A stretch of 64,000 nucleotides of DNA from Escherichia coli. Its GTDB lineage: Bacteria; Pseudomonadota; Gammaproteobacteria; Enterobacterales; Enterobacteriaceae. The notes beneath the pieces are model-generated. The model was not told where the DNA came from. It made no database searches and saw only the letters and a program-made list of their open reading frames with translations. Shown in pieces: positions 3,817-21,791 of this stretch; position 1 is the first letter of the stretch; each line of letters opens with the position of its first letter. The stretch is from the NCBI RefSeq assembly GCF_009931435.1, contig NZ_CP043414.1; one strand, given 5' to 3'. The translations under genes were made by a program, and so were the position numbers.

Positions 3817-5214
<1,398 letters not shown>

Positions 5215-6880: not shown

Positions 6881-8458
6881 ATGACGGAAAACATTCATAA
6901 GCATCGCATCCTCATTCTGGACTTCGGTTCTCAGTACACCCAACTGGTTGCGCGCCGCGTGCGTGAACTGGGTGTTTACTGCGAACTGTGGGCGTGGGAT
7001 GTGACAGAAGCACAAATTCGTGACTTCAATCCAAGCGGCATTATTCTTTCCGGCGGCCCGGAAAGCACCACCGAAGAAAACAGCCCGCGTGCGCCGCAGT
7101 ATGTCTTTGAAGCAGGCGTACCGGTATTCGGCGTTTGCTATGGTATGCAGACCATGGCAATGCAGTTGGGTGGTCATGTTGAAGCCTCTAACGAACGTGA
7201 ATTTGGCTATGCGCAGGTTGAAGTCGTAAACGACAGCGCACTGGTTCGCGGTATCGAAGATGCTCTGACAGCAGACGGTAAACCTCTGCTCGATGTCTGG
7301 ATGAGCCACGGCGATAAAGTTACCGCTATCCCGTCCGACTTCATCACCGTAGCCAGCACCGAAAGCTGCCCGTTCGCCATCATGGCAAATGAAGAAAAAC
7401 GCTTCTATGGCGTACAGTTCCACCCGGAAGTGACTCATACCCGCCAGGGGATGCGCATGCTGGAGCGTTTTGTGCGTGATATCTGCCAGTGTGAAGCCCT
7501 GTGGACGCCAGCGAAAATTATCGACGATGCAGTAGCCCGTATCCGCGAGCAGGTAGGCGACGATAAAGTGATCCTCGGCCTCTCTGGTGGCGTGGATTCC
7601 TCCGTGACTGCAATGCTGCTGCACCGCGCAATCGGCAAAAACCTGACTTGCGTATTCGTTGACAACGGCCTGCTGCGTCTCAACGAAGCAGAGCAGGTTC
7701 TGGATATGTTTGGCGATCACTTTGGTCTGAACATTGTTCACGTTCCGGCAGAAGATCGCTTCTTGTCAGCGCTGGCTGGTGAAAACGATCCGGAAGCAAA
7801 ACGTAAAATCATCGGTCGCGTTTTCGTTGAAGTATTCGATGAAGAAGCGCTGAAACTGGAAGATGTGAAGTGGCTGGCGCAGGGTACTATCTACCCTGAT
7901 GTTATCGAATCTGCCGCGTCTGCAACCGGTAAAGCTCACGTCATCAAATCTCACCACAACGTGGGCGGCCTGCCGAAAGAGATGAAGATGGGCCTGGTTG
8001 AACCGCTGAAAGAGCTGTTCAAAGACGAAGTGCGTAAAATTGGTCTGGAGCTGGGCCTGCCGTACGACATGCTGTACCGTCACCCGTTCCCGGGACCAGG
8101 GCTTGGCGTTCGTGTGCTGGGCGAAGTGAAGAAAGAGTACTGCGACCTGCTGCGCCGTGCTGATGCCATCTTCATTGAAGAACTGCGTAAAGCGGACCTG
8201 TACGACAAAGTTAGCCAGGCGTTTACCGTGTTCCTGCCGGTACGTTCTGTTGGCGTAATGGGCGATGGTCGTAAATACGACTGGGTTGTGTCTCTGCGTG
8301 CCGTCGAAACCATCGACTTTATGACCGCACACTGGGCACATCTGCCGTACGATTTCCTTGGTCGCGTTTCCAACCGCATTATCAATGAAGTGAACGGTAT
8401 TTCCCGCGTGGTGTATGACATCAGCGGCAAGCCGCCAGCGACTATTGAGTGGGAGTAG
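6881..8458 (+). CDS. guaA: GMP synthase (glutamine-hydrolysing)
   Basis: 525 aa [25 protein letters not shown]...; 68 bp downstream of guaB. Confidence 0.97.
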
Positions 8459-8500
8459 GACTGGCTATAAATAGTAAATTAAGCCTTTCCAACTAACTTT

Positions 8501-8532
8501 AATGCCAGTCAGTTTGCTGACTGGCATTTTTT
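8501..8532 (+). terminator. Intrinsic terminator of guaBA
   Basis: 12 bp perfect stem (AATGCCAGTCAG / CTGACTGGCATT), 4 nt loop, then a T6 run; 43 nt after the guaA stop. Confidence 0.75.
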
Positions 8533-8752
8533 ATTGGTTTTTCATTGAGTTTATGACTTCTATTTTTAAGGCCGTAACTCTATAACATCGGCTATGGCCT
8601 AAAGATAAAAGCCATTACCAACAAAATGGCGGTATTCCAAAACAGTCTAGCCGGAAGTGCTTACAATGAGATCGATCAAATCGACAAATGAGATACTGGC
8701 CGTTGTGAGCGCCCGGCAACCGTAGCCGTAGGGGGCGAATTTAATGGCTTTG

Positions 8753-9529
8753 TTATGAGCCATTGGTAATCGCACCCATGACAATTTGAAAGAGTTCTTC
8801 TGCTCGATTAGTGGAGCCAATTGCACCTCTTTCTCTCGCCATTCTCTTGTGCTCTGGTAGATCTGAGGACGCATAGATCATAAAAGGAGTTTTGTCTCCC
8901 ATTGCGCGTAATCTTTCTAGTAAGACATAACCTTCTTGCGCCCCTTCTTTGCGATCCATATCCGAAATAATAGCTGCAAACTTATTTGTTTTTAACAATT
9001 CCAAGGCTTCGTCAGTTGAAAGAGCTAAAGCGAACTCTATTCCCTGTGCCTCAAATGCCTGTCTTTCGTAAACATTATTTTCTGGTCGATCATCCACCCA
9101 TAAAATACGATTTCGCCATTTTTCATGCTTACTCTGCCGTTTTGCATTGGATACAACGTTGACGATTTTTTGCAGTTGGCTTTCAGTGACCCCTGCACTA
9201 TTTTCAGGCTGTTTTGCTGTGGCGGCGGTCAATGATGCTGCTGTAGCTATTTGCGCTCTTAAAAAATTATTTTCATCTTTGAAATCTGACGGCCCGTAAA
9301 GCTTATTATGATGTTTCGCAACAAGCCAGAGAAAGCCAAGAAACACAATGACAGGAAAGAAAACCATGAAATAAATAAGGGGAGCTATATGCTCTGATAA
9401 GCCATTACCAAAGCCAACGACGAAAGAGGCAAATCCATAAACGAGAACAATAAAGAGTGCAATGATACCAAGAGGGCTTTTGGTAAATCCTATTGCAGTT
9501 TCAGCAAATTTCTCTGGTTCCATATCCAT
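8753..9529 (-). CDS. Membrane-anchored receiver-like (CheY-fold) protein: two predicted TM helices plus C-terminal pseudo-receiver domain
   Basis: 258 aa ORF. Hydrophobic stretches at about residues 19-41 and 48-72. Residues about 141-252 align by eye to CheY (ILWVDD for the beta1 acidic pair, IISDMD for the phospho-acceptor Asp, IYASS for the Thr/Ser position), but no lysine at the K109-equivalent position. Low GC, about 40 percent. Confidence 0.55.
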   Translation of the reverse strand: MDMEPEKFAETAIGFTKSPLGIIALFIVLVYGFASFVVGFGNGLSEHIAPLIYFMVFFPVIVFLGFLWLVAKHHNKLYGPSDFKDENNFLRAQIATAASLTAATAKQPENSAGVTESQLQKIVNVVSNAKRQSKHEKWRNRILWVDDRPENNVYERQAFEAQGIEFALALSTDEALELLKTNKFAAIISDMDRKEGAQEGYVLLERLRAMGDKTPFMIYASSDLPEHKRMARERGAIGSTNRAEELFQIVMGAITNGS

Positions 9530-9616
9530 CCTCAGTATTGCTCATAACACAGTTAAGTTGTATTAGATCAGACCTGATCTGACAATTACCGGCTATTTAT
9601 AAAGGTATCTGTCAGA

Positions 9617-10012
9617 TTACATCTGGCTTAAGTTTTTCTCATCCCAGATGTGCTTTCCATCAAGTAACGTTTCCATCGGCGTTCGGCCACTGCACATTTT
9701 TCCCTGATGGGTTCGCTCATTATTATAGTGAACCCGCCATTCATCAAGAACCGATTGTAATGCTTCAAGATCATCATATAACTTTTTGCGGAACGTCACC
9801 TGATAAAACTCGTTCAGTATCGTTTTATGGAACTGCTCGCAGATACTATTGGTCTTAGATGACATTGCTTTCGTTTTCGTATGCTCAATATCATTTATCG
9901 CCAGATAAAGCTGGTAATCATGCTGCTCCACTTTACCGCAATCTCTTGGTGTATTGAGAGGCGGGTTATAAAATAAATACTGATACCATGAGGGCGGATC
10001 AATCGTGGTCAT
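9617..10012 (-). pseudogene. 3' remnant of a DDE (rve-type) transposase gene
   Basis: 131 aa ORF whose C-terminal part (SSKTNSICEQFHKTILNEF...HYNNERTHQG...GRTP) matches the integrase-core C-terminus typical of IS481/IS3-type transposases. The N-terminal two thirds of a transposase are absent and the ATPase gene abuts the truncation point. Confidence 0.55.
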
Positions 10013-10027
10013 AGTATCAGGTCATTC

Positions 10028-11542
10028 TCATGGGTTTATTGCGTCCCTGAAGATGACGTCGCTGACCATCTCTCCTCCAAGAAAATCGATCAACATATTC
10101 GAGTTTTCAAGGTCTTCTCTGGTCAATGCCCCGATTGCTTGTCCAACTACTACCTCCCAAGGTTTTTTACACTCAACAATAGCACAGACGAGTTGGCGGA
10201 TTTTCTTGATCTTCTTGTGACGCAATCGGTCGTTCGATTCCATTAGTTCTGCAATCAACGCTATGTCGGAGTGTGTTTGATTATCCTCAACCCATTTTTT
10301 GGCTGCGTCTACAAATTCCACCCATGTAACATTCATTACTGCAAGGCATGAATCAGTCAAAAGAACATTTTCGATAGCGTAGCATCGTAAGCGATAGCGT
10401 TTAAGAGGTAGGCGATGTTCAAGCGACTTGTTGATTACACCATCGCCATCACGAAGGGAAAAGGCGATTGGATTGTCATAGAGTGTACTAAGGAGGTCTA
10501 CGCAAAAATCCTCAAGTTGACTCTGTTGATCTACGCTACCTGCTAGTACGGGAAAGATTTTTATTCGACCCTGTGATGTTCTGGCCGCTTGTTGCCAGAC
10601 TCGTTCGTCGTCCTCTCCTTCCAAAATTAATGCAGCGTCTTCGCTAAGAGAAAGCGATAGGGGGTGCCCGAAGAATGGTGCAATCTTTCGAAGTTCATCG
10701 CTGGCCGGTATCAATGAGATTTCATTTACTGCAAAGCTCTTCGTGCCGATTGATACATATGGGGAGGCGGCAAGAGAACAGACGAGCGGGGAACTATGGG
10801 TGGATAAGCATATGGCAATACTGTTCGCGTGTGTTCTAAATTCGTCGAGCATACTGATTATCAGCTTGCCCAGTCTAGCTTGGAGGTCGGGGTGCAGATG
10901 TACATCAGGCTCATCGAGGAGGAGTACGTTGAATTTCTCCGGATCTATTGTGTCGAAGAAATAGATGATTTCCGCGGCTAATGCAACCGCTTCCGATTCA
11001 CCGCTACTGATTTGGGCCGGATCAATAATCTGACCATCTACAAGTGATCGAAACTCATAATCGACATTACCCATCTCGAGCGAAATGTTAGTGAGAAGCT
11101 GATTAATTTTACTTAATCGGTCTGTCTGAAAGTTTCGCGTTAGATCAGTTCGAATTTCCGGAGTATTGGCAAGTCGACGTAAGTAAAGCGTCTCGGCCTC
11201 GCGAAATAGCATAGCCGATGCAGCTTTGAAGTTGCTTGCCTGATTAACTGCCCGAGTGTGCCTCAGCCATTCGGGGTTGTCGCTCATATTTGTGAGGACG
11301 GTGCCATCACGCTTGAACGATCCTGCTCGCTCTGGACTTACATACCGGACATAAAATTGCTGCTTGTTCTGGCTGATTGTTTGTTCGATATCGCGAAGGA
11401 AACGACTTTTTCCCGCACCGTTTCGGCCCATAATTATGTTGATGTTGTTTAAGCCGTAAAGTCGGCCAATTTGGCTAGATAACTCGCTTACTTTCAAGAT
11501 TGTAACTCCATTTCTTGTTGCCACATACGGTAACAAATACAC
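10028..11542 (-). CDS. ABC-type ATPase fused to TOPRIM-like nuclease motif (OLD-family / Gabija GajA-like), candidate anti-phage protein
   Basis: 504 aa ORF. Walker A GRNGAGKS (residues 39-46, nt 11405-11428), signature-like SSGESE (179-184), Walker B VLLLDEPD (206-213), H-loop-like STHS (247-250), TOPRIM-like Glu in LILEGEDDE (E308) and DxD in LRDGDG (D365/D367). Start codon uncertain: GTG at 11542, or a TTG at residue 16 preceded by GGAG. About 43-45 percent GC. Confidence 0.6.
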   Translation of the reverse strand: MYLLPYVATRNGVTILKVSELSSQIGRLYGLNNINIIMGRNGAGKSRFLRDIEQTISQNKQQFYVRYVSPERAGSFKRDGTVLTNMSDNPEWLRHTRAVNQASNFKAASAMLFREAETLYLRRLANTPEIRTDLTRNFQTDRLSKINQLLTNISLEMGNVDYEFRSLVDGQIIDPAQISSGESEAVALAAEIIYFFDTIDPEKFNVLLLDEPDVHLHPDLQARLGKLIISMLDEFRTHANSIAICLSTHSSPLVCSLAASPYVSIGTKSFAVNEISLIPASDELRKIAPFFGHPLSLSLSEDAALILEGEDDERVWQQAARTSQGRIKIFPVLAGSVDQQSQLEDFCVDLLSTLYDNPIAFSLRDGDGVINKSLEHRLPLKRYRLRCYAIENVLLTDSCLAVMNVTWVEFVDAAKKWVEDNQTHSDIALIAELMESNDRLRHKKIKKIRQLVCAIVECKKPWEVVVGQAIGALTREDLENSNMLIDFLGGEMVSDVIFRDAINP

Positions 11543-11800
11543 TAACTGAATAGGTGCGTTGATGCCTCATTTTGTTCACATCTATGTTGAAATTAGTGAT
11601 GTGAACGAGCTAAGGACTCTATTAGGAGTAGAGCGGCCATATTGTTCGTCTGAACAGCCTGTAGACAGCTCTATTATTGAGACATGGTATTTTTCGTGGT
11701 ATCTGCTAAGTAGTTTGTTTCAAGGCATTGATTTATTTATATTTTATTTTCTCATTGATAGCTGAGTGGGAATGATTTGATCCCTGCACTATGAATTAGC

Positions 11801-11830
11801 AAAACCCTCTGTTACTACAGAGGGTTTTTT
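11801..11830. terminator. Bidirectional hairpin terminator downstream of yfgI, at the islet boundary
   Basis: AAAA-CCCTCTG-TTACTA-CAGAGGG-TTTTTT; the A-tract/T-tract flanks allow termination in both directions. Confidence 0.55.
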
Positions 11831-11868
11831 ATACTCACGAATCATAGGATTGAAGTTACTGACATCGC

Positions 11869-12408
11869 TTAGTTAAACCAGCTGTCCGATTTGTTCTCTT
11901 CTGCTTTGCCCACGCTTTTCATCAGATCGCGACCGCCTTCAGTCATATTCCTGTTTGCGTCAGCTTCAGATTGCACCACATCGGTTTGCGCAGCTTTGTG
12001 CTTCAGTTCCTGATCGATAAATTCGTTTTCTCGCTTAACGCGGGCTTCTTCTTTCGCCAGCGCCAGTTTTTGTTTCTGAATCTCTAAGCTGCGTAGCTCA
12101 TCTTCATAACTTTGATCGCGTTTCTTGTCCGCAGTGGCTTCGGCGTCCAGTTTATCCTGACGAGCTTTCTTATTTGCCGCTGCCGTTGCCGCTCTTTTGT
12201 TAGCGGCGGCCTGGGCGTTTGCGCGACGTTGCTTCTCTTGCTGGATTTCCCTGTTGCGCTCCGCGACCCATTCGTCATGCTGCCTTTGCTCTTCATTTTT
12301 ACCTTGCTGTTCCGCTTCTGCGACAGCAGAGAGTTGATCCTGCAATGATGAGGCGATAGCCGGATAGCTTAAGGAGGCTAAGATGGCGCAAAGAAAAACT
12401 TTCTTCAT
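11869..12408 (-). CDS. yfgI: Periplasmic protein YfgI
   Basis: 179 aa, signal peptide MKKVFLCAILASLSYPAIA, charged K/E/Q-rich body; synteny with yfgH. Confidence 0.85.
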   Translation of the reverse strand: MKKVFLCAILASLSYPAIASSLQDQLSAVAEAEQQGKNEEQRQHDEWVAERNREIQQEKQRRANAQAAANKRAATAAANKKARQDKLDAEATADKKRDQSYEDELRSLEIQKQKLALAKEEARVKRENEFIDQELKHKAAQTDVVQSEADANRNMTEGGRDLMKSVGKAEENKSDSWFN

Positions 12409-12423
12409 GACTCCTCCTGATTA

Positions 12424-12942
12424 TTAGCTCTTTTCAGGACATTTGGTATTTGGCTGAATACGCGTTTCGTTATACGTCGTGGTAATAACAACGGCTAAAC
12501 CTGTCGTAAACTGGCACTCTTTACCCACCTGGGTGGAGGTATACACTTTGGTGCCTTCCTTATACGTTAGAGAAACACCTTCCACTAAGGTTTTATCATT
12601 CACCATAGAACCTGCTGCCGCGCCAACAGCTCCGCCGCCAACTGCACCTGCCGTCGTTCCGGAATTGCTGCCAGACCCCACGTTGTGGCCGATAACACCG
12701 CCAGCGACTGCACCAATAAGCGCGCCGAAGGCTTGTGCGTTTCGTTTATTTTGGGAGTTGTCTACGGCAACTTTTGCGGGAAGAATGGAAATAATATTAA
12801 CGGTTTTAGTTTCTTGTTTGGTATTCAGTTGATCGGTTTGATAAACATCGGCGGCATGATCATCAGCATTTGACTGGCATCCTGCCAGAGTGAATGACGC
12901 TAACATTGCCACAGGCAGAAGACATTTTTTAAATTTCATCAC
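12424..12942 (-). CDS. yfgH: Outer-membrane lipoprotein YfgH (glycine-zipper)
   Basis: 172 aa, lipobox LAGC, Gly-rich zipper GALIGAVAGGVIGHNVGSG. Confidence 0.85.
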   Translation of the reverse strand: MMKFKKCLLPVAMLASFTLAGCQSNADDHAADVYQTDQLNTKQETKTVNIISILPAKVAVDNSQNKRNAQAFGALIGAVAGGVIGHNVGSGSNSGTTAGAVGGGAVGAAAGSMVNDKTLVEGVSLTYKEGTKVYTSTQVGKECQFTTGLAVVITTTYNETRIQPNTKCPEKS

Positions 12943-13252
12943 TATTCCTTGTTATACACATTACGAAAAATAAGACATTTAAGATCATCAAAAGAGGAAA
13001 GTAAATGTATTGCGTATAAAGGAATAGATTAAATTTATTAAAATTCATGTGGAAAATAATTTATAAAAATACATCATTAAAACATATGTATTAATTTTAT
13101 ATTTATTTCGCAGCCAAACAGGATAAACATCAGTCAGGACAAAGACGTAAAATTTAAGATGAAAGAATATCTGCCGCTTTGATAATCTCAAAGAGCAACT
13201 GCATCCGACAGCGAGGTGCCGTTATGTTCAGTGAAGGTGGAGAAGGTAACCG

Positions 13253-13444
13253 CTAACGTTGTACCGGTGATTCGACGGAGAGTGTGGATTGTTGAGCTTC
13301 TTTTTTGCTCTGATGGTGCTGCCAGGCACCGACGGACGAGTAGATAAAGCGGCCAAAGAAGAAGATAAAGCTGATGAGCAGTACGATACGGGTCATGCGA
13401 CTGTTAAATCGGTGTCGTTTTCGCATACTGGTTGCCTGACTCAC
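13253..13444 (-). CDS. yfgG: Small membrane protein YfgG
   Basis: 63 aa ORF with one hydrophobic helix; conserved position divergent from pdeF. Confidence 0.7.
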   Translation of the reverse strand: MSQATSMRKRHRFNSRMTRIVLLISFIFFFGRFIYSSVGAWQHHQSKKEAQQSTLSVESPVQR

Positions 13445-13654
13445 AAAAGGTTCCTTGAAGTATGTCCCACGCCGTGGACGGTACTTACATTAAGGCACAA
13501 CAGGACAAAATGGTCAATTCTTCGTTATGTAAAAAAGCGTCAGTGGATACATATTTTAATGTTATGGAAGTTAATTTAATTATTTACAATGATGATGTAA
13601 TAATGATGAATTAACATGATAAACGTAATAATTCATTAATCAGGGTTATTTTGT

Positions 13655-13668
13655 TTGATATATATCAA
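13655..13668 (+). promoter_or_regulatory. FNR/CRP-type box TTGAT-ATAT-ATCAA upstream of pdeF, with candidate -10 TAGAAT at 13690-13695
   Basis: Perfect TTGAT-N4-ATCAA palindrome centred about 40 bp upstream of the predicted start site, a class II arrangement. Confidence 0.5.
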
Positions 13669-13795
13669 TTGGAACTTTCATATGACACTTAGAATCAATG
13701 CTCTCTATAGTGATGAATAATCATCATTCGAAGTCAGGTGGGATGCCTGTCTGAATACACCTCCTTCACGATGTGGGGGATTCTGCTGAGCATCT

Positions 13796-16039
13796 ATGAA
13801 ACTGAATGCAACCTATATAAAAATACGTGATAAATGGTGGGGGCTTCCGCTGTTCCTGCCTTCTTTCATCTTGCCCATTTTCGCCCATATTAATACTTTC
13901 GCGCATATTTCTTCCGGTGAGGTTTTTCTCTTTTACCTGCCTTTGGCACTGATGATCAGCATGATGATGTTTTTCAGCTGGGCGGCATTGCCAGGGATCG
14001 CCTTAGGGATTTTTGTCCGCAAATATGCAGAGCTGGGTATTTACGAAACGCTCTCATTAACAGCTAATTTTATTATCATTATCATTCTCTGTTGGGGCGG
14101 TTACAGGGTCTTTACTCCCCGGCGTAACAACGTTTCACATGGTGATACCCGTTTAATTGCCCAGCGTATATTCTGGCAGATTGTATTTCCTGCAACGCTG
14201 TTTCTAATACTTTTCCAATTTGCTGCGTTTGTTGGATTACTGGCGAGCAGAGAAAATCTGGTCGGCGTCATGCCTTTTAACCTCGGGACCTTAATCAATT
14301 ATCAGGCCTTACTGGTGGGCAATCTGATTGGTGTTCCGCTGTGCTACTTCATCATTCGGGTGGTGCGAAATCCGTTTTATTTACGCAGCTATTATTCGCA
14401 ATTAAAACAGCAAGTTGATGTCAAAGTCACCAAAAAAGAGTTCGCGCTCTGGCTACTGGCATTAGGTGCGTTGTTGTTGCTGTTATGCATGCCGTTAAAT
14501 GAAAAAAGCACGATTTTCAGCACCAATTATACCTTGTCATTATTGCTACCCCTGATGATGTGGGGAGCCATGCGCTATGGTTATAAGTTGATTTCGCTGC
14601 TCTGGGCGGTCGTGCTGATGATCAGCATCCACAGCTATCAAAATTACATTCCCATTTATCCTGGCTATACCACGCAACTGACCATAACCTCCTCCAGTTA
14701 TCTGGTATTCTCTTTTATTGTCAATTATATGGTTGTACTGGCAACCCGTCAGCGAGCGGTAGTCAGACGCATTCAGCGGCTTGCGTATGTGGACCCGGTG
14801 GTTCATCTGCCAAATGTTCGCGCCCTGAATCGCGCGTTGCGTGATGCCCCCTGGTCTGCGCTTTGTTATTTACGCATCCCCGGCATGGAAATGCTGGTTA
14901 AGAACTATGGCATCATGCTACGGATTCAATACAAGCAAAAACTTTCTCACTGGCTGTCACCATTGCTGGAACCGGGTGAAGATGTTTATCAGCTTTCGGG
15001 TAACGATCTCGCGCTGCGACTGAATACAGAATCGCACCAGGAGCGCATTACCGCACTGGATAGCCATCTCAAGCAATTTCGTTTCTTTTGGGATGGAATG
15101 CCGATGCAACCGCAGATTGGCGTCAGTTACTGCTATGTGCGCTCGCCAGTGAATCATATCTACTTACTGCTGGGAGAGCTAAATACGGTCGCCGAACTTT
15201 CCATCGTGACCAACGCCCCGGAAAATATGCAGCGTCGCGGGGCAATGTATTTGCAACGCGAATTGAAAGATAAAGTCGCGATGATGAATCGGCTACAGCA
15301 GGCGCTGGAACACAACCATTTTTTCCTGATGGCCCAGCCGATTACCGGTATGCGTGGTGATGTCTACCATGAGATCCTTCTGCGCATGAAAGGTGATAAT
15401 GATGAACTGATCAGCCCCGACAGCTTCTTGCCGGTCGCGCACGAATTTGGTTTATCGTCGAGTATCGACATGTGGGTCATTGAGCATACGCTGCAATTTA
15501 TGGCTGAAAACAGAGCGAAGATGCCCGCTCACCGTTTTGCGATTAATCTGTCGCCAACCTCGGTATGTCAGGCTCGTTTTCCCGTTGAAGTCAGTCAGCT
15601 GCTGGCTAAATACCAGATTGAAGCGTGGCAACTTATTTTTGAAGTCACCGAAAGTAATGCGCTGACCAATGTTAAGCAGGCGCAAATCACCTTGCAGCAT
15701 CTTCAGGAATTAGGCTGCCAGATTGCGATTGATGATTTCGGCACCGGCTACGCCAGCTATGCGCGGCTTAAAAATGTGAATGCCGATCTCCTTAAAATTG
15801 ACGGCAGTTTTATCCGCAATATTGTGTCAAATAGTCTGGATTACCAGATAGTGGCGTCGATTTGTCACCTGGCGCGAATGAAGAAAATGCTGGTAGTGGC
15901 AGAGTACGTTGAAAACGAAGAGATCCGCGAGGCGGTGCTTTCTTTAGGGATAGATTATATGCAGGGTTATCTTATTGGTAAGCCGCAACCGTTAATTGAT
16001 ACGCTGAATGAAATCGAACCCATTCGCGAAAGTGCCTGA
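13796..16039 (+). CDS. pdeF: Cyclic-di-GMP phosphodiesterase PdeF (MASE1 - degenerate GGDEF - EAL)
   Basis: 747 aa; multi-TM N-terminus; EAL-domain motifs in the C-terminal part. Confidence 0.92.
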   Translation: MKLNATYIKIRDKWWGLPLFLPSFILPIFAHINTFAHISSGEVFLFYLPLALMISMMMFFSWAALPGIALGIFVRKYAELGIYETLSLTANFIIIIILCWGGYRVFTPRRNNVSHGDTRLIAQRIFWQIVFPATLFLILFQFAAFVGLLASRENLVGVMPFNLGTLINYQALLVGNLIGVPLCYFIIRVVRNPFYLRSYYSQLKQQVDVKVTKKEFALWLLALGALLLLLCMPLNEKSTIFSTNYTLSLLLPLMMWGAMRYGYKLISLLWAVVLMISIHSYQNYIPIYPGYTTQLTITSSSYLVFSFIVNYMVVLATRQRAVVRRIQRLAYVDPVVHLPNVRALNRALRDAPWSALCYLRIPGMEMLVKNYGIMLRIQYKQKLSHWLSPLLEPGEDVYQLSGNDLALRLNTESHQERITALDSHLKQFRFFWDGMPMQPQIGVSYCYVRSPVNHIYLLLGELNTVAELSIVTNAPENMQRRGAMYLQRELKDKVAMMNRLQQALEHNHFFLMAQPITGMRGDVYHEILLRMKGDNDELISPDSFLPVAHEFGLSSSIDMWVIEHTLQFMAENRAKMPAHRFAINLSPTSVCQARFPVEVSQLLAKYQIEAWQLIFEVTESNALTNVKQAQITLQHLQELGCQIAIDDFGTGYASYARLKNVNADLLKIDGSFIRNIVSNSLDYQIVASICHLARMKKMLVVAEYVENEEIREAVLSLGIDYMQGYLIGKPQPLIDTLNEIEPIRESA

Positions 16040-21616: not shown

Positions 21617-21791
21617 GACTGCTTTACACAACCTTTTTGCACGTCTTTTCCCCAGGCGCGCGGCGAAAGAATACTTGTACCAGGGCAAAGGATCGTTTTC
21701 GGATGGAATAATCTTCTTCCATAACCATTTGAATACAAAATAACTTTATCTCAAACCGTTATCATTTTGACTAAAGTCAACGAAAATAATA

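Follow-up and report, generated by a model that had tools for sequence, protein, structure and literature searches.

The stretch of Escherichia coli DNA analysed here (64,000 nucleotides; hereafter, the window) carries on its plus strand the coding sequence of pdeF (yfgF; positions 13796–16039) which, based on its open reading frame (ORF), the RefSeq annotation, and the domains given in PMC3718329, encodes a 747-aa MASE1-GGDEF-EAL c-di-GMP phosphodiesterase. This reading frame is annotated as pdeF both in K-12 and in E. coli genomes sharing 99.9% identity with the window over an 801-bp query, and the ORF at 13253–13444 (minus strand) corresponds to yfgG. The two genes are separated by a 351-bp spacer, within which lies the palindrome that is the subject of this analysis. 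The 801 bases around this site were matched in 5423 of the 5426 complete E. coli genomes, the best matches being 99.9% identical, and the matches carry annotations for pdeF, yfgG, and a small ORF of hypothetical product. Comparison of the spacer with that of K-12 MG1655 reveals 3 substitutions, and the box and -10 hexamer described below are identical base for base. A 91-bp core (13630–13720) displays 98.9–100% identity in 5392 of the 5426 complete genomes (identity is complete in roughly half of the E. coli genomes and 98.9% in most others), and an A/T variant at 13673, located between the box and the -10 hexamer, divides E. coli genomes about half and half. Only the final 33 bases of this core align in E. 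coli TUM9812 (NZ_CP128926.1, 1339303–1339335), and judging from this alignment the FNR box region may be deleted or interrupted in that strain.

The small hypothetical ORF in the pdeF-yfgG spacer (50 aa; 13462–13614, plus strand) is annotated by PGAP as WP_000017552.1 and is unannotated in K-12; it lies across the yfgG promoter and gave no Pfam match. Among other Escherichia lineages, Escherichia sp. E1V33 has lost its start codon and E. whittamii its stop codon, and many of the nucleotide differences alter a residue. We consider this ORF unlikely to be a genuine gene. The neighbouring yfgH-yfgG spacer (12900–13199) has a GC content of 23–25%, which is below that of the pdeF-yfgG spacer. Elsewhere in the window, approximately 3.3 kb (8459–11868) located between guaA (6881–8458, plus strand) and yfgI (11869–12408, minus strand) are missing from K-12 and from the closest genome match, in which the guaA-yfgI gap is approximately 93 bp. 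This region carries three minus-strand ORFs, encoding products of 258 aa (response-regulator receiver domain), 131 aa (integrase-core (rve_3) fragment), and 504 aa (AAA_15/AAA_21 ATPase, with weak PADLOC matches to PDC-M01A (1e-17), AriA, PtuA, and GajA), and may represent a small mobile or defence islet.

At positions 13655–13668, TTGATATATATCAA forms a perfect TTGAT-N4-ATCAA palindrome (TTGAT, 13655–13659; ATAT, 13660–13663; ATCAA, 13664–13668) in which all 10 specified bases agree and whose centre lies at 13661.5. Within the 64-kb window, a perfect TTGATNNNNATCAA occurs once, at this position, compared to an expectation of 0.06 per window, and 6 of 100 dinucleotide shuffles contained one. 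When up to one mismatch was permitted, 5 sites were found in the window versus 2.35 expected, which is unremarkable; the perfect site alone stands out. Given that the local DNA is AT-rich (25% GC for 13500–13699), the 351-bp spacer (GC 0.345) was also shuffled alone, and a perfect box was obtained in 85 of 20000 shuffles (0.4%).

Downstream of the box, after a gap of 21 bp (13669–13689), a TAGAAT hexamer is found at 13690–13695 (plus strand); the same hexamer is named as the -10 element of the yfgF promoter in PMC3718329, and we take it as the -10 of the FNR-dependent pdeF promoter. Placing the predicted transcription start at 13702–13703 (plus strand; 7–8 nt past the hexamer) puts the box centre at -40.5 to -41.5, with 13703 giving the published value of -41.5 (PMC3718329). 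Spacers of 16–18 bp ahead of TAGAAT yield only 0–2 of 6 matches to TTGACA, so that no usable -35 precedes it, and the position where a -35 would be expected (13666–13673, plus strand) runs into the right half-site of the box. An extended -10 TG is also absent before TAGAAT. Class II promoters that depend on an activator typically lack a -35. The preliminary description of this DNA had proposed a perfect box, this -10 hexamer, and a class II placement with the box centred approximately 40 bp upstream of the start, of which the box and hexamer are confirmed and the placement is supported here, the 21-bp spacing between the two elements being the same in orthologous loci.

The predicted 5' untranslated leader of pdeF would span approximately 93 nt (13703–13795, plus strand). 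An Rfam scan of 13200–14000 (E ≤ 1) returned no match, and the predicted fold of the leader was no better than that of shuffled sequences (z = -0.62); a riboswitch or structured leader was dropped on these grounds. A 16-bp palindrome (TGATGA-ATAA-TCATCA) at 13711–13726, approximately +9 to +24 of the predicted transcript, makes up the first hairpin of this non-significant fold. It is kept in Escherichia lineages, and unrelated sequence is found at the same place in Kluyvera, Phytobacter, and Enterobacter. A Fur box, considered by eye for this palindrome and for the ATAATGAT-type runs of the spacer, was rejected on account of poor spacing and poor arm matches.

Conservation beyond E. coli was surveyed using the PdeF protein against one genome per species, and full-length orthologues with upstream DNA were retained. 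This provided 13 loci from other Escherichia lineages, Enterobacter asburiae, two Phytobacter species, Kluyvera (six loci from five species or genomospecies), and one further Enterobacteriaceae genome; no Salmonella, Citrobacter, or Klebsiella locus was returned because the peptide patterns employed were specific to the Escherichia sequence. In all 13 loci, representing at least four genera, a box with 0–1 mismatch is followed by TA[G/A]AAT after exactly 21 bp, and the boxes lie 124–143 bp upstream of the start codon. When the 13 orthologue loci and the window were aligned on the box without gaps, the majority-base fraction reached 0.95 in the half-sites and 0.96 in the -10, compared to 0.62 in both the four central bases and the 21-bp spacer, and 0.52–0.58 in the flanks. 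Co-conservation of box and -10 at a fixed spacing, with diverged flanks, argues against a chance palindrome; such a footprint is what a protein-binding site held at a set distance from a core promoter element should leave. According to PMC3718329, the yfgF promoter of Salmonella Enteritidis keeps both elements, as TTGAC--ATCAA and TACAAT. The cross-genus footprint is new here, and is a modest addition.

The FNR site of pdeF is itself already known, having been first described in 2010 and borne out on a genome-wide scale in 2013. PMC3718329 (Green laboratory) describes the E. coli yfgF promoter as having an FNR box TTGAT--ATCAA at -41.5 and a TAGAAT -10, and cites Lacey, Partridge and Green 2010 (Microbiology 156:2873, doi 10.1099/mic.0.037887-0) for FNR-activated, anaerobically maximal yfgF expression in wild-type K-12. 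In a RegulonDB-type curation paper, FNR is likewise recorded as activating yfgF under anaerobiosis. Genome-wide data of Myers 2013 (PMC3688515) place an FNR ChIP-seq and ChIP-chip peak at yfgF/yfgG (Table S5), find TTGATATATATCAA under the ChIP-seq peak with a PatSer score of 16.08, the seventh highest among the bound sites listed (Table S6), and assign yfgF as the target, with one known start site referenced to Lacey 2010 (Table S9). Two more FNR sites under ChIP-seq peaks of Myers 2013 occur in the window, both on the minus strand: TTGACTTTAGTCAA at 21767–21780 in the upp/purM spacer, and TTGATCTCGCTCAC at 5185–5198 in the guaB/xseA spacer.

Expression data from the same study are less straightforward. 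While FNR is bound, no fnr-dependent change in yfgF was recorded in the wild type in anaerobic glucose minimal medium (Myers 2013, Table S9; PMC3688515), and neither yfgF nor yfgG is present among the fnr-dependent operons of Table S8 (PMC3688515). Oxygen-dependent yfgF expression was seen in that anaerobic glucose-minimal-medium study only in Δhns/ΔstpA, in which yfgF was 4.3-fold higher without oxygen (+O2/-O2 = 0.23; Table S11) and FNR occupancy at the yfgF peak increased significantly, from 0.35 to 1.68 log2 (Table S7; PMC3688515). Absence of an fnr effect in wild-type cells in glucose minimal medium, together with induction there only without H-NS and StpA, indicates that activation is condition-dependent. 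The anaerobic, FNR-dependent expression of yfgF/pdeF put forward in the preliminary description agrees with Lacey 2010 (via PMC3718329) and with curation, but does not extend to the wild type in glucose minimal medium (Myers 2013). H-NS masking is suggested only, given that Shimada 2014 flags H-NS in the pdeF-yfgG spacer but Table S6 of Myers 2013 (PMC3688515) has no H-NS, Fis, or IHF enrichment overlapping the yfgF site. Two further observations count against FNR activation of pdeF: without oxygen, the strong sigma-70 ChIP-seq signal of the spacer (2627279) centres on the yfgG promoter and not on that of pdeF, and a second promoter-like site (13682–13711) overlaps the FNR-dependent core promoter.

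Taken together, we consider it very probable that pdeF is driven by a class II promoter activated by FNR, with the 14-bp palindrome as its FNR operator. In the absence of oxygen, FNR would keep its [4Fe-4S] cluster, dimerise, and bind the two TTGAT half-sites approximately 41 bp upstream of the start, where it would stand in for the missing -35 and recruit sigma-70 RNA polymerase to TAGAAT via putative direct contacts. In the presence of oxygen, the cluster would be lost, FNR would become monomeric and be released, and pdeF transcription would be expected to fall. The box, the -10, the absent -35, and the co-conservation at fixed spacing are seen in the sequence analysed here, and the occupancy and FNR-dependent anaerobic expression were demonstrated by others; we infer the exact pdeF start in this strain and the FNR-polymerase contacts. 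A further regulatory layer is likely, pdeF output being condition-dependent, and higher without H-NS and StpA.

Several other explanations for the palindrome have to be weighed against this one. The spacer is AT-rich, ATATAT-type sequence readily gives palindromes, and one-mismatch sites are unenriched in the window, all of which would suit a functionless product of chance; however, a perfect box arose in just 0.4% of composition-matched spacer shuffles, the box holds its spacing in several genera although the flanking sequence has diverged, and FNR occupies it in vivo (Myers 2013). The ChIP data and the footprint thus already effectively refute a chance origin, the probability of which is negligible. 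A CRP or dual CRP/FNR site, by which pdeF would be coupled to carbon source, is encompassed by the 'FNR/CRP-type' label that had been given to the box. The two proteins recognise related inverted repeats (TGTGA-N6-TCACA versus TTGAT-N4-ATCAA), and Myers 2013 (PMC3688515) notes some overlapping CRP/FNR sites (guaB, ptsH, and uxaB); yfgF, however, is not among the overlap cases named in that passage. The papers found to mention both yfgF and CRP have neither term in title or abstract, and the RegulonDB curation paper, Shimada 2014, and Peano 2015 among them report no CRP binding at yfgF. Aligned on the same dyad, the CRP core reads TTTGA / TCAAT, with T in place of the discriminating G in both halves, and the first position of both half-sites is T (TTGA / TCAA), as in FNR sites, rather than the G of GTGA. 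This half-site base pair is reportedly what discriminates FNR from CRP, a result attributed to Bell et al. in 1989 and Spiro et al. in 1990. Given the half-site sequence and no report of CRP binding, the CRP reading was rejected as extremely unlikely, and only the FNR part of the label is kept. It is equally hard to believe that the box serves the divergent yfgG instead of pdeF. The yfgG promoter, TTGACC-17-CTTAAT (13489–13517, minus strand; hexamers from Shimada 2014), has its start near 13481, to which the yfgG start at 2627275 (U00096.2) of Peano 2015 maps and close to which the anaerobic sigma-70 ChIP-seq peak at 2627279 lies. Although the FNR ChIP peak is labelled yfgF/yfgG (Myers 2013), and yfgG has a ratio of 0.45, which may be read in either direction, in Table S12 (operons that differ between aerobic and anaerobic wild type), the box centre lies approximately 180 bp from the yfgG start, far beyond usual FNR activation positions, and yfgG was rejected as the target because of this distance. 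Furthermore, Myers 2013 assigns yfgF as the target, yfgG is missing from the fnr-dependent operons of Table S8, and the conserved 21-bp spacing runs to the -10 on the pdeF side.

The remaining alternatives accept FNR binding and concern what it achieves. A sigma-70 promoter-like sequence, ATGACA-18-TATAGT (13682–13711, plus strand), represents a rival core promoter; were pdeF transcribed mainly from it, the FNR box would lie near -57, and hence would not be class II. It was the sole match of a consensus scan (10 of 12), and the same hexamers are reported as a factor-independent ('constitutive') RpoD promoter for yfgF in the genomic SELEX of Shimada 2014, but the box position published in PMC3718329 is -41.5. 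In addition, the consensus scan gave fewer sites than shuffles (1 versus 2.4 expected), and these hexamers are confined to Escherichia, whereas the box and TA[G/A]AAT are conserved beyond it. FNR and CRP class I sites are found at -61.5 and -71.5, with which a centre near -57 would be out of helical phase. We treat ATGACA-18-TATAGT as a minor rival or basal promoter, and its role as the main pdeF promoter as very unlikely. It is possible, if on balance doubtful, that FNR binding is mostly unproductive in the wild type, that H-NS and StpA silence the AT-rich spacer, and that relief of silencing is the main control with oxygen being secondary. Such silencing would accommodate the ChIP peak found without fnr-dependent yfgF expression in wild-type glucose-minimal-medium cultures, the oxygen-dependent expression and significantly higher FNR occupancy in Δhns/ΔstpA (Myers 2013), the 25% GC of 13500–13699, and the H-NS flag of Shimada 2014. 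Nevertheless, no H-NS, Fis, or IHF enrichment at the site is listed in Table S6 of Myers 2013, which leaves room for an indirect effect of Δhns, and FNR-activated, anaerobically maximal expression was seen in wild-type K-12 by Lacey 2010 (via PMC3718329). Silencing refines the main explanation, a class II FNR-activated pdeF promoter, and does not replace it. A further reading, which we regard as unlikely, is that the FNR site is gated by something beyond oxygen, one candidate being an Escherichia-specific layer added to the ancestral promoter and consisting of the overlapping sigma-70 site (13682–13711) and the palindrome at 13711–13726, which could bind H-NS/StpA or another repressor. If true, such gating would account for the absence of fnr-dependent output from this top-ranked and FNR-occupied class II site when the wild type grows in minimal medium.

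As an FNR operator for pdeF, the site lets FNR pass its sensing of oxygen on to c-di-GMP turnover, which in turn bears on motility, cell-surface properties, and the response to peroxide. Besides the footprint, what this analysis adds is a collation of the supplementary-table evidence for condition-dependent output; the site itself brings no new biology.

Among known systems, CRP class II promoters (TGTGA-N6-TCACA at -41.5) share with the pdeF promoter the protein family of the activator, the dyad geometry, and the position relative to the -10, but their half-sites start with G, whereas those of the pdeF box, at which no CRP binding is reported, start with T. In the case of hlyE, a Category 7 (H-NS-masked) member in Myers 2013, the FNR site occupies an activating position and, as with yfgF in that study, expression is induced without oxygen only in Δhns/ΔstpA; Category 7 sites are without a wild-type FNR peak, however, whereas yfgF is bound in the wild type, albeit more weakly than in the mutant (0.35 versus 1.68 log2), and Table S6 is without H-NS enrichment over the yfgF site. 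The class II FNR promoters of nirB, narK, and yfiD likewise have a consensus or near-consensus box near -41.5 that replaces the -35, with PatSer scores of 17.06 (nirB and narK) and 17.25 (yfiD) compared to 16.08 for yfgF (Myers 2013). These promoters display clear fnr-dependent expression or have known co-regulators, whereas yfgF has no fnr effect in the wild type in glucose minimal medium and no other known regulator listed (Myers 2013). The K-12 yfgF promoter of Lacey 2010, as described in PMC3718329, is the same locus with an identical box and -10, and the window spacer differs from it by 3 substitutions in 351 bp, all of which fall outside these two elements.
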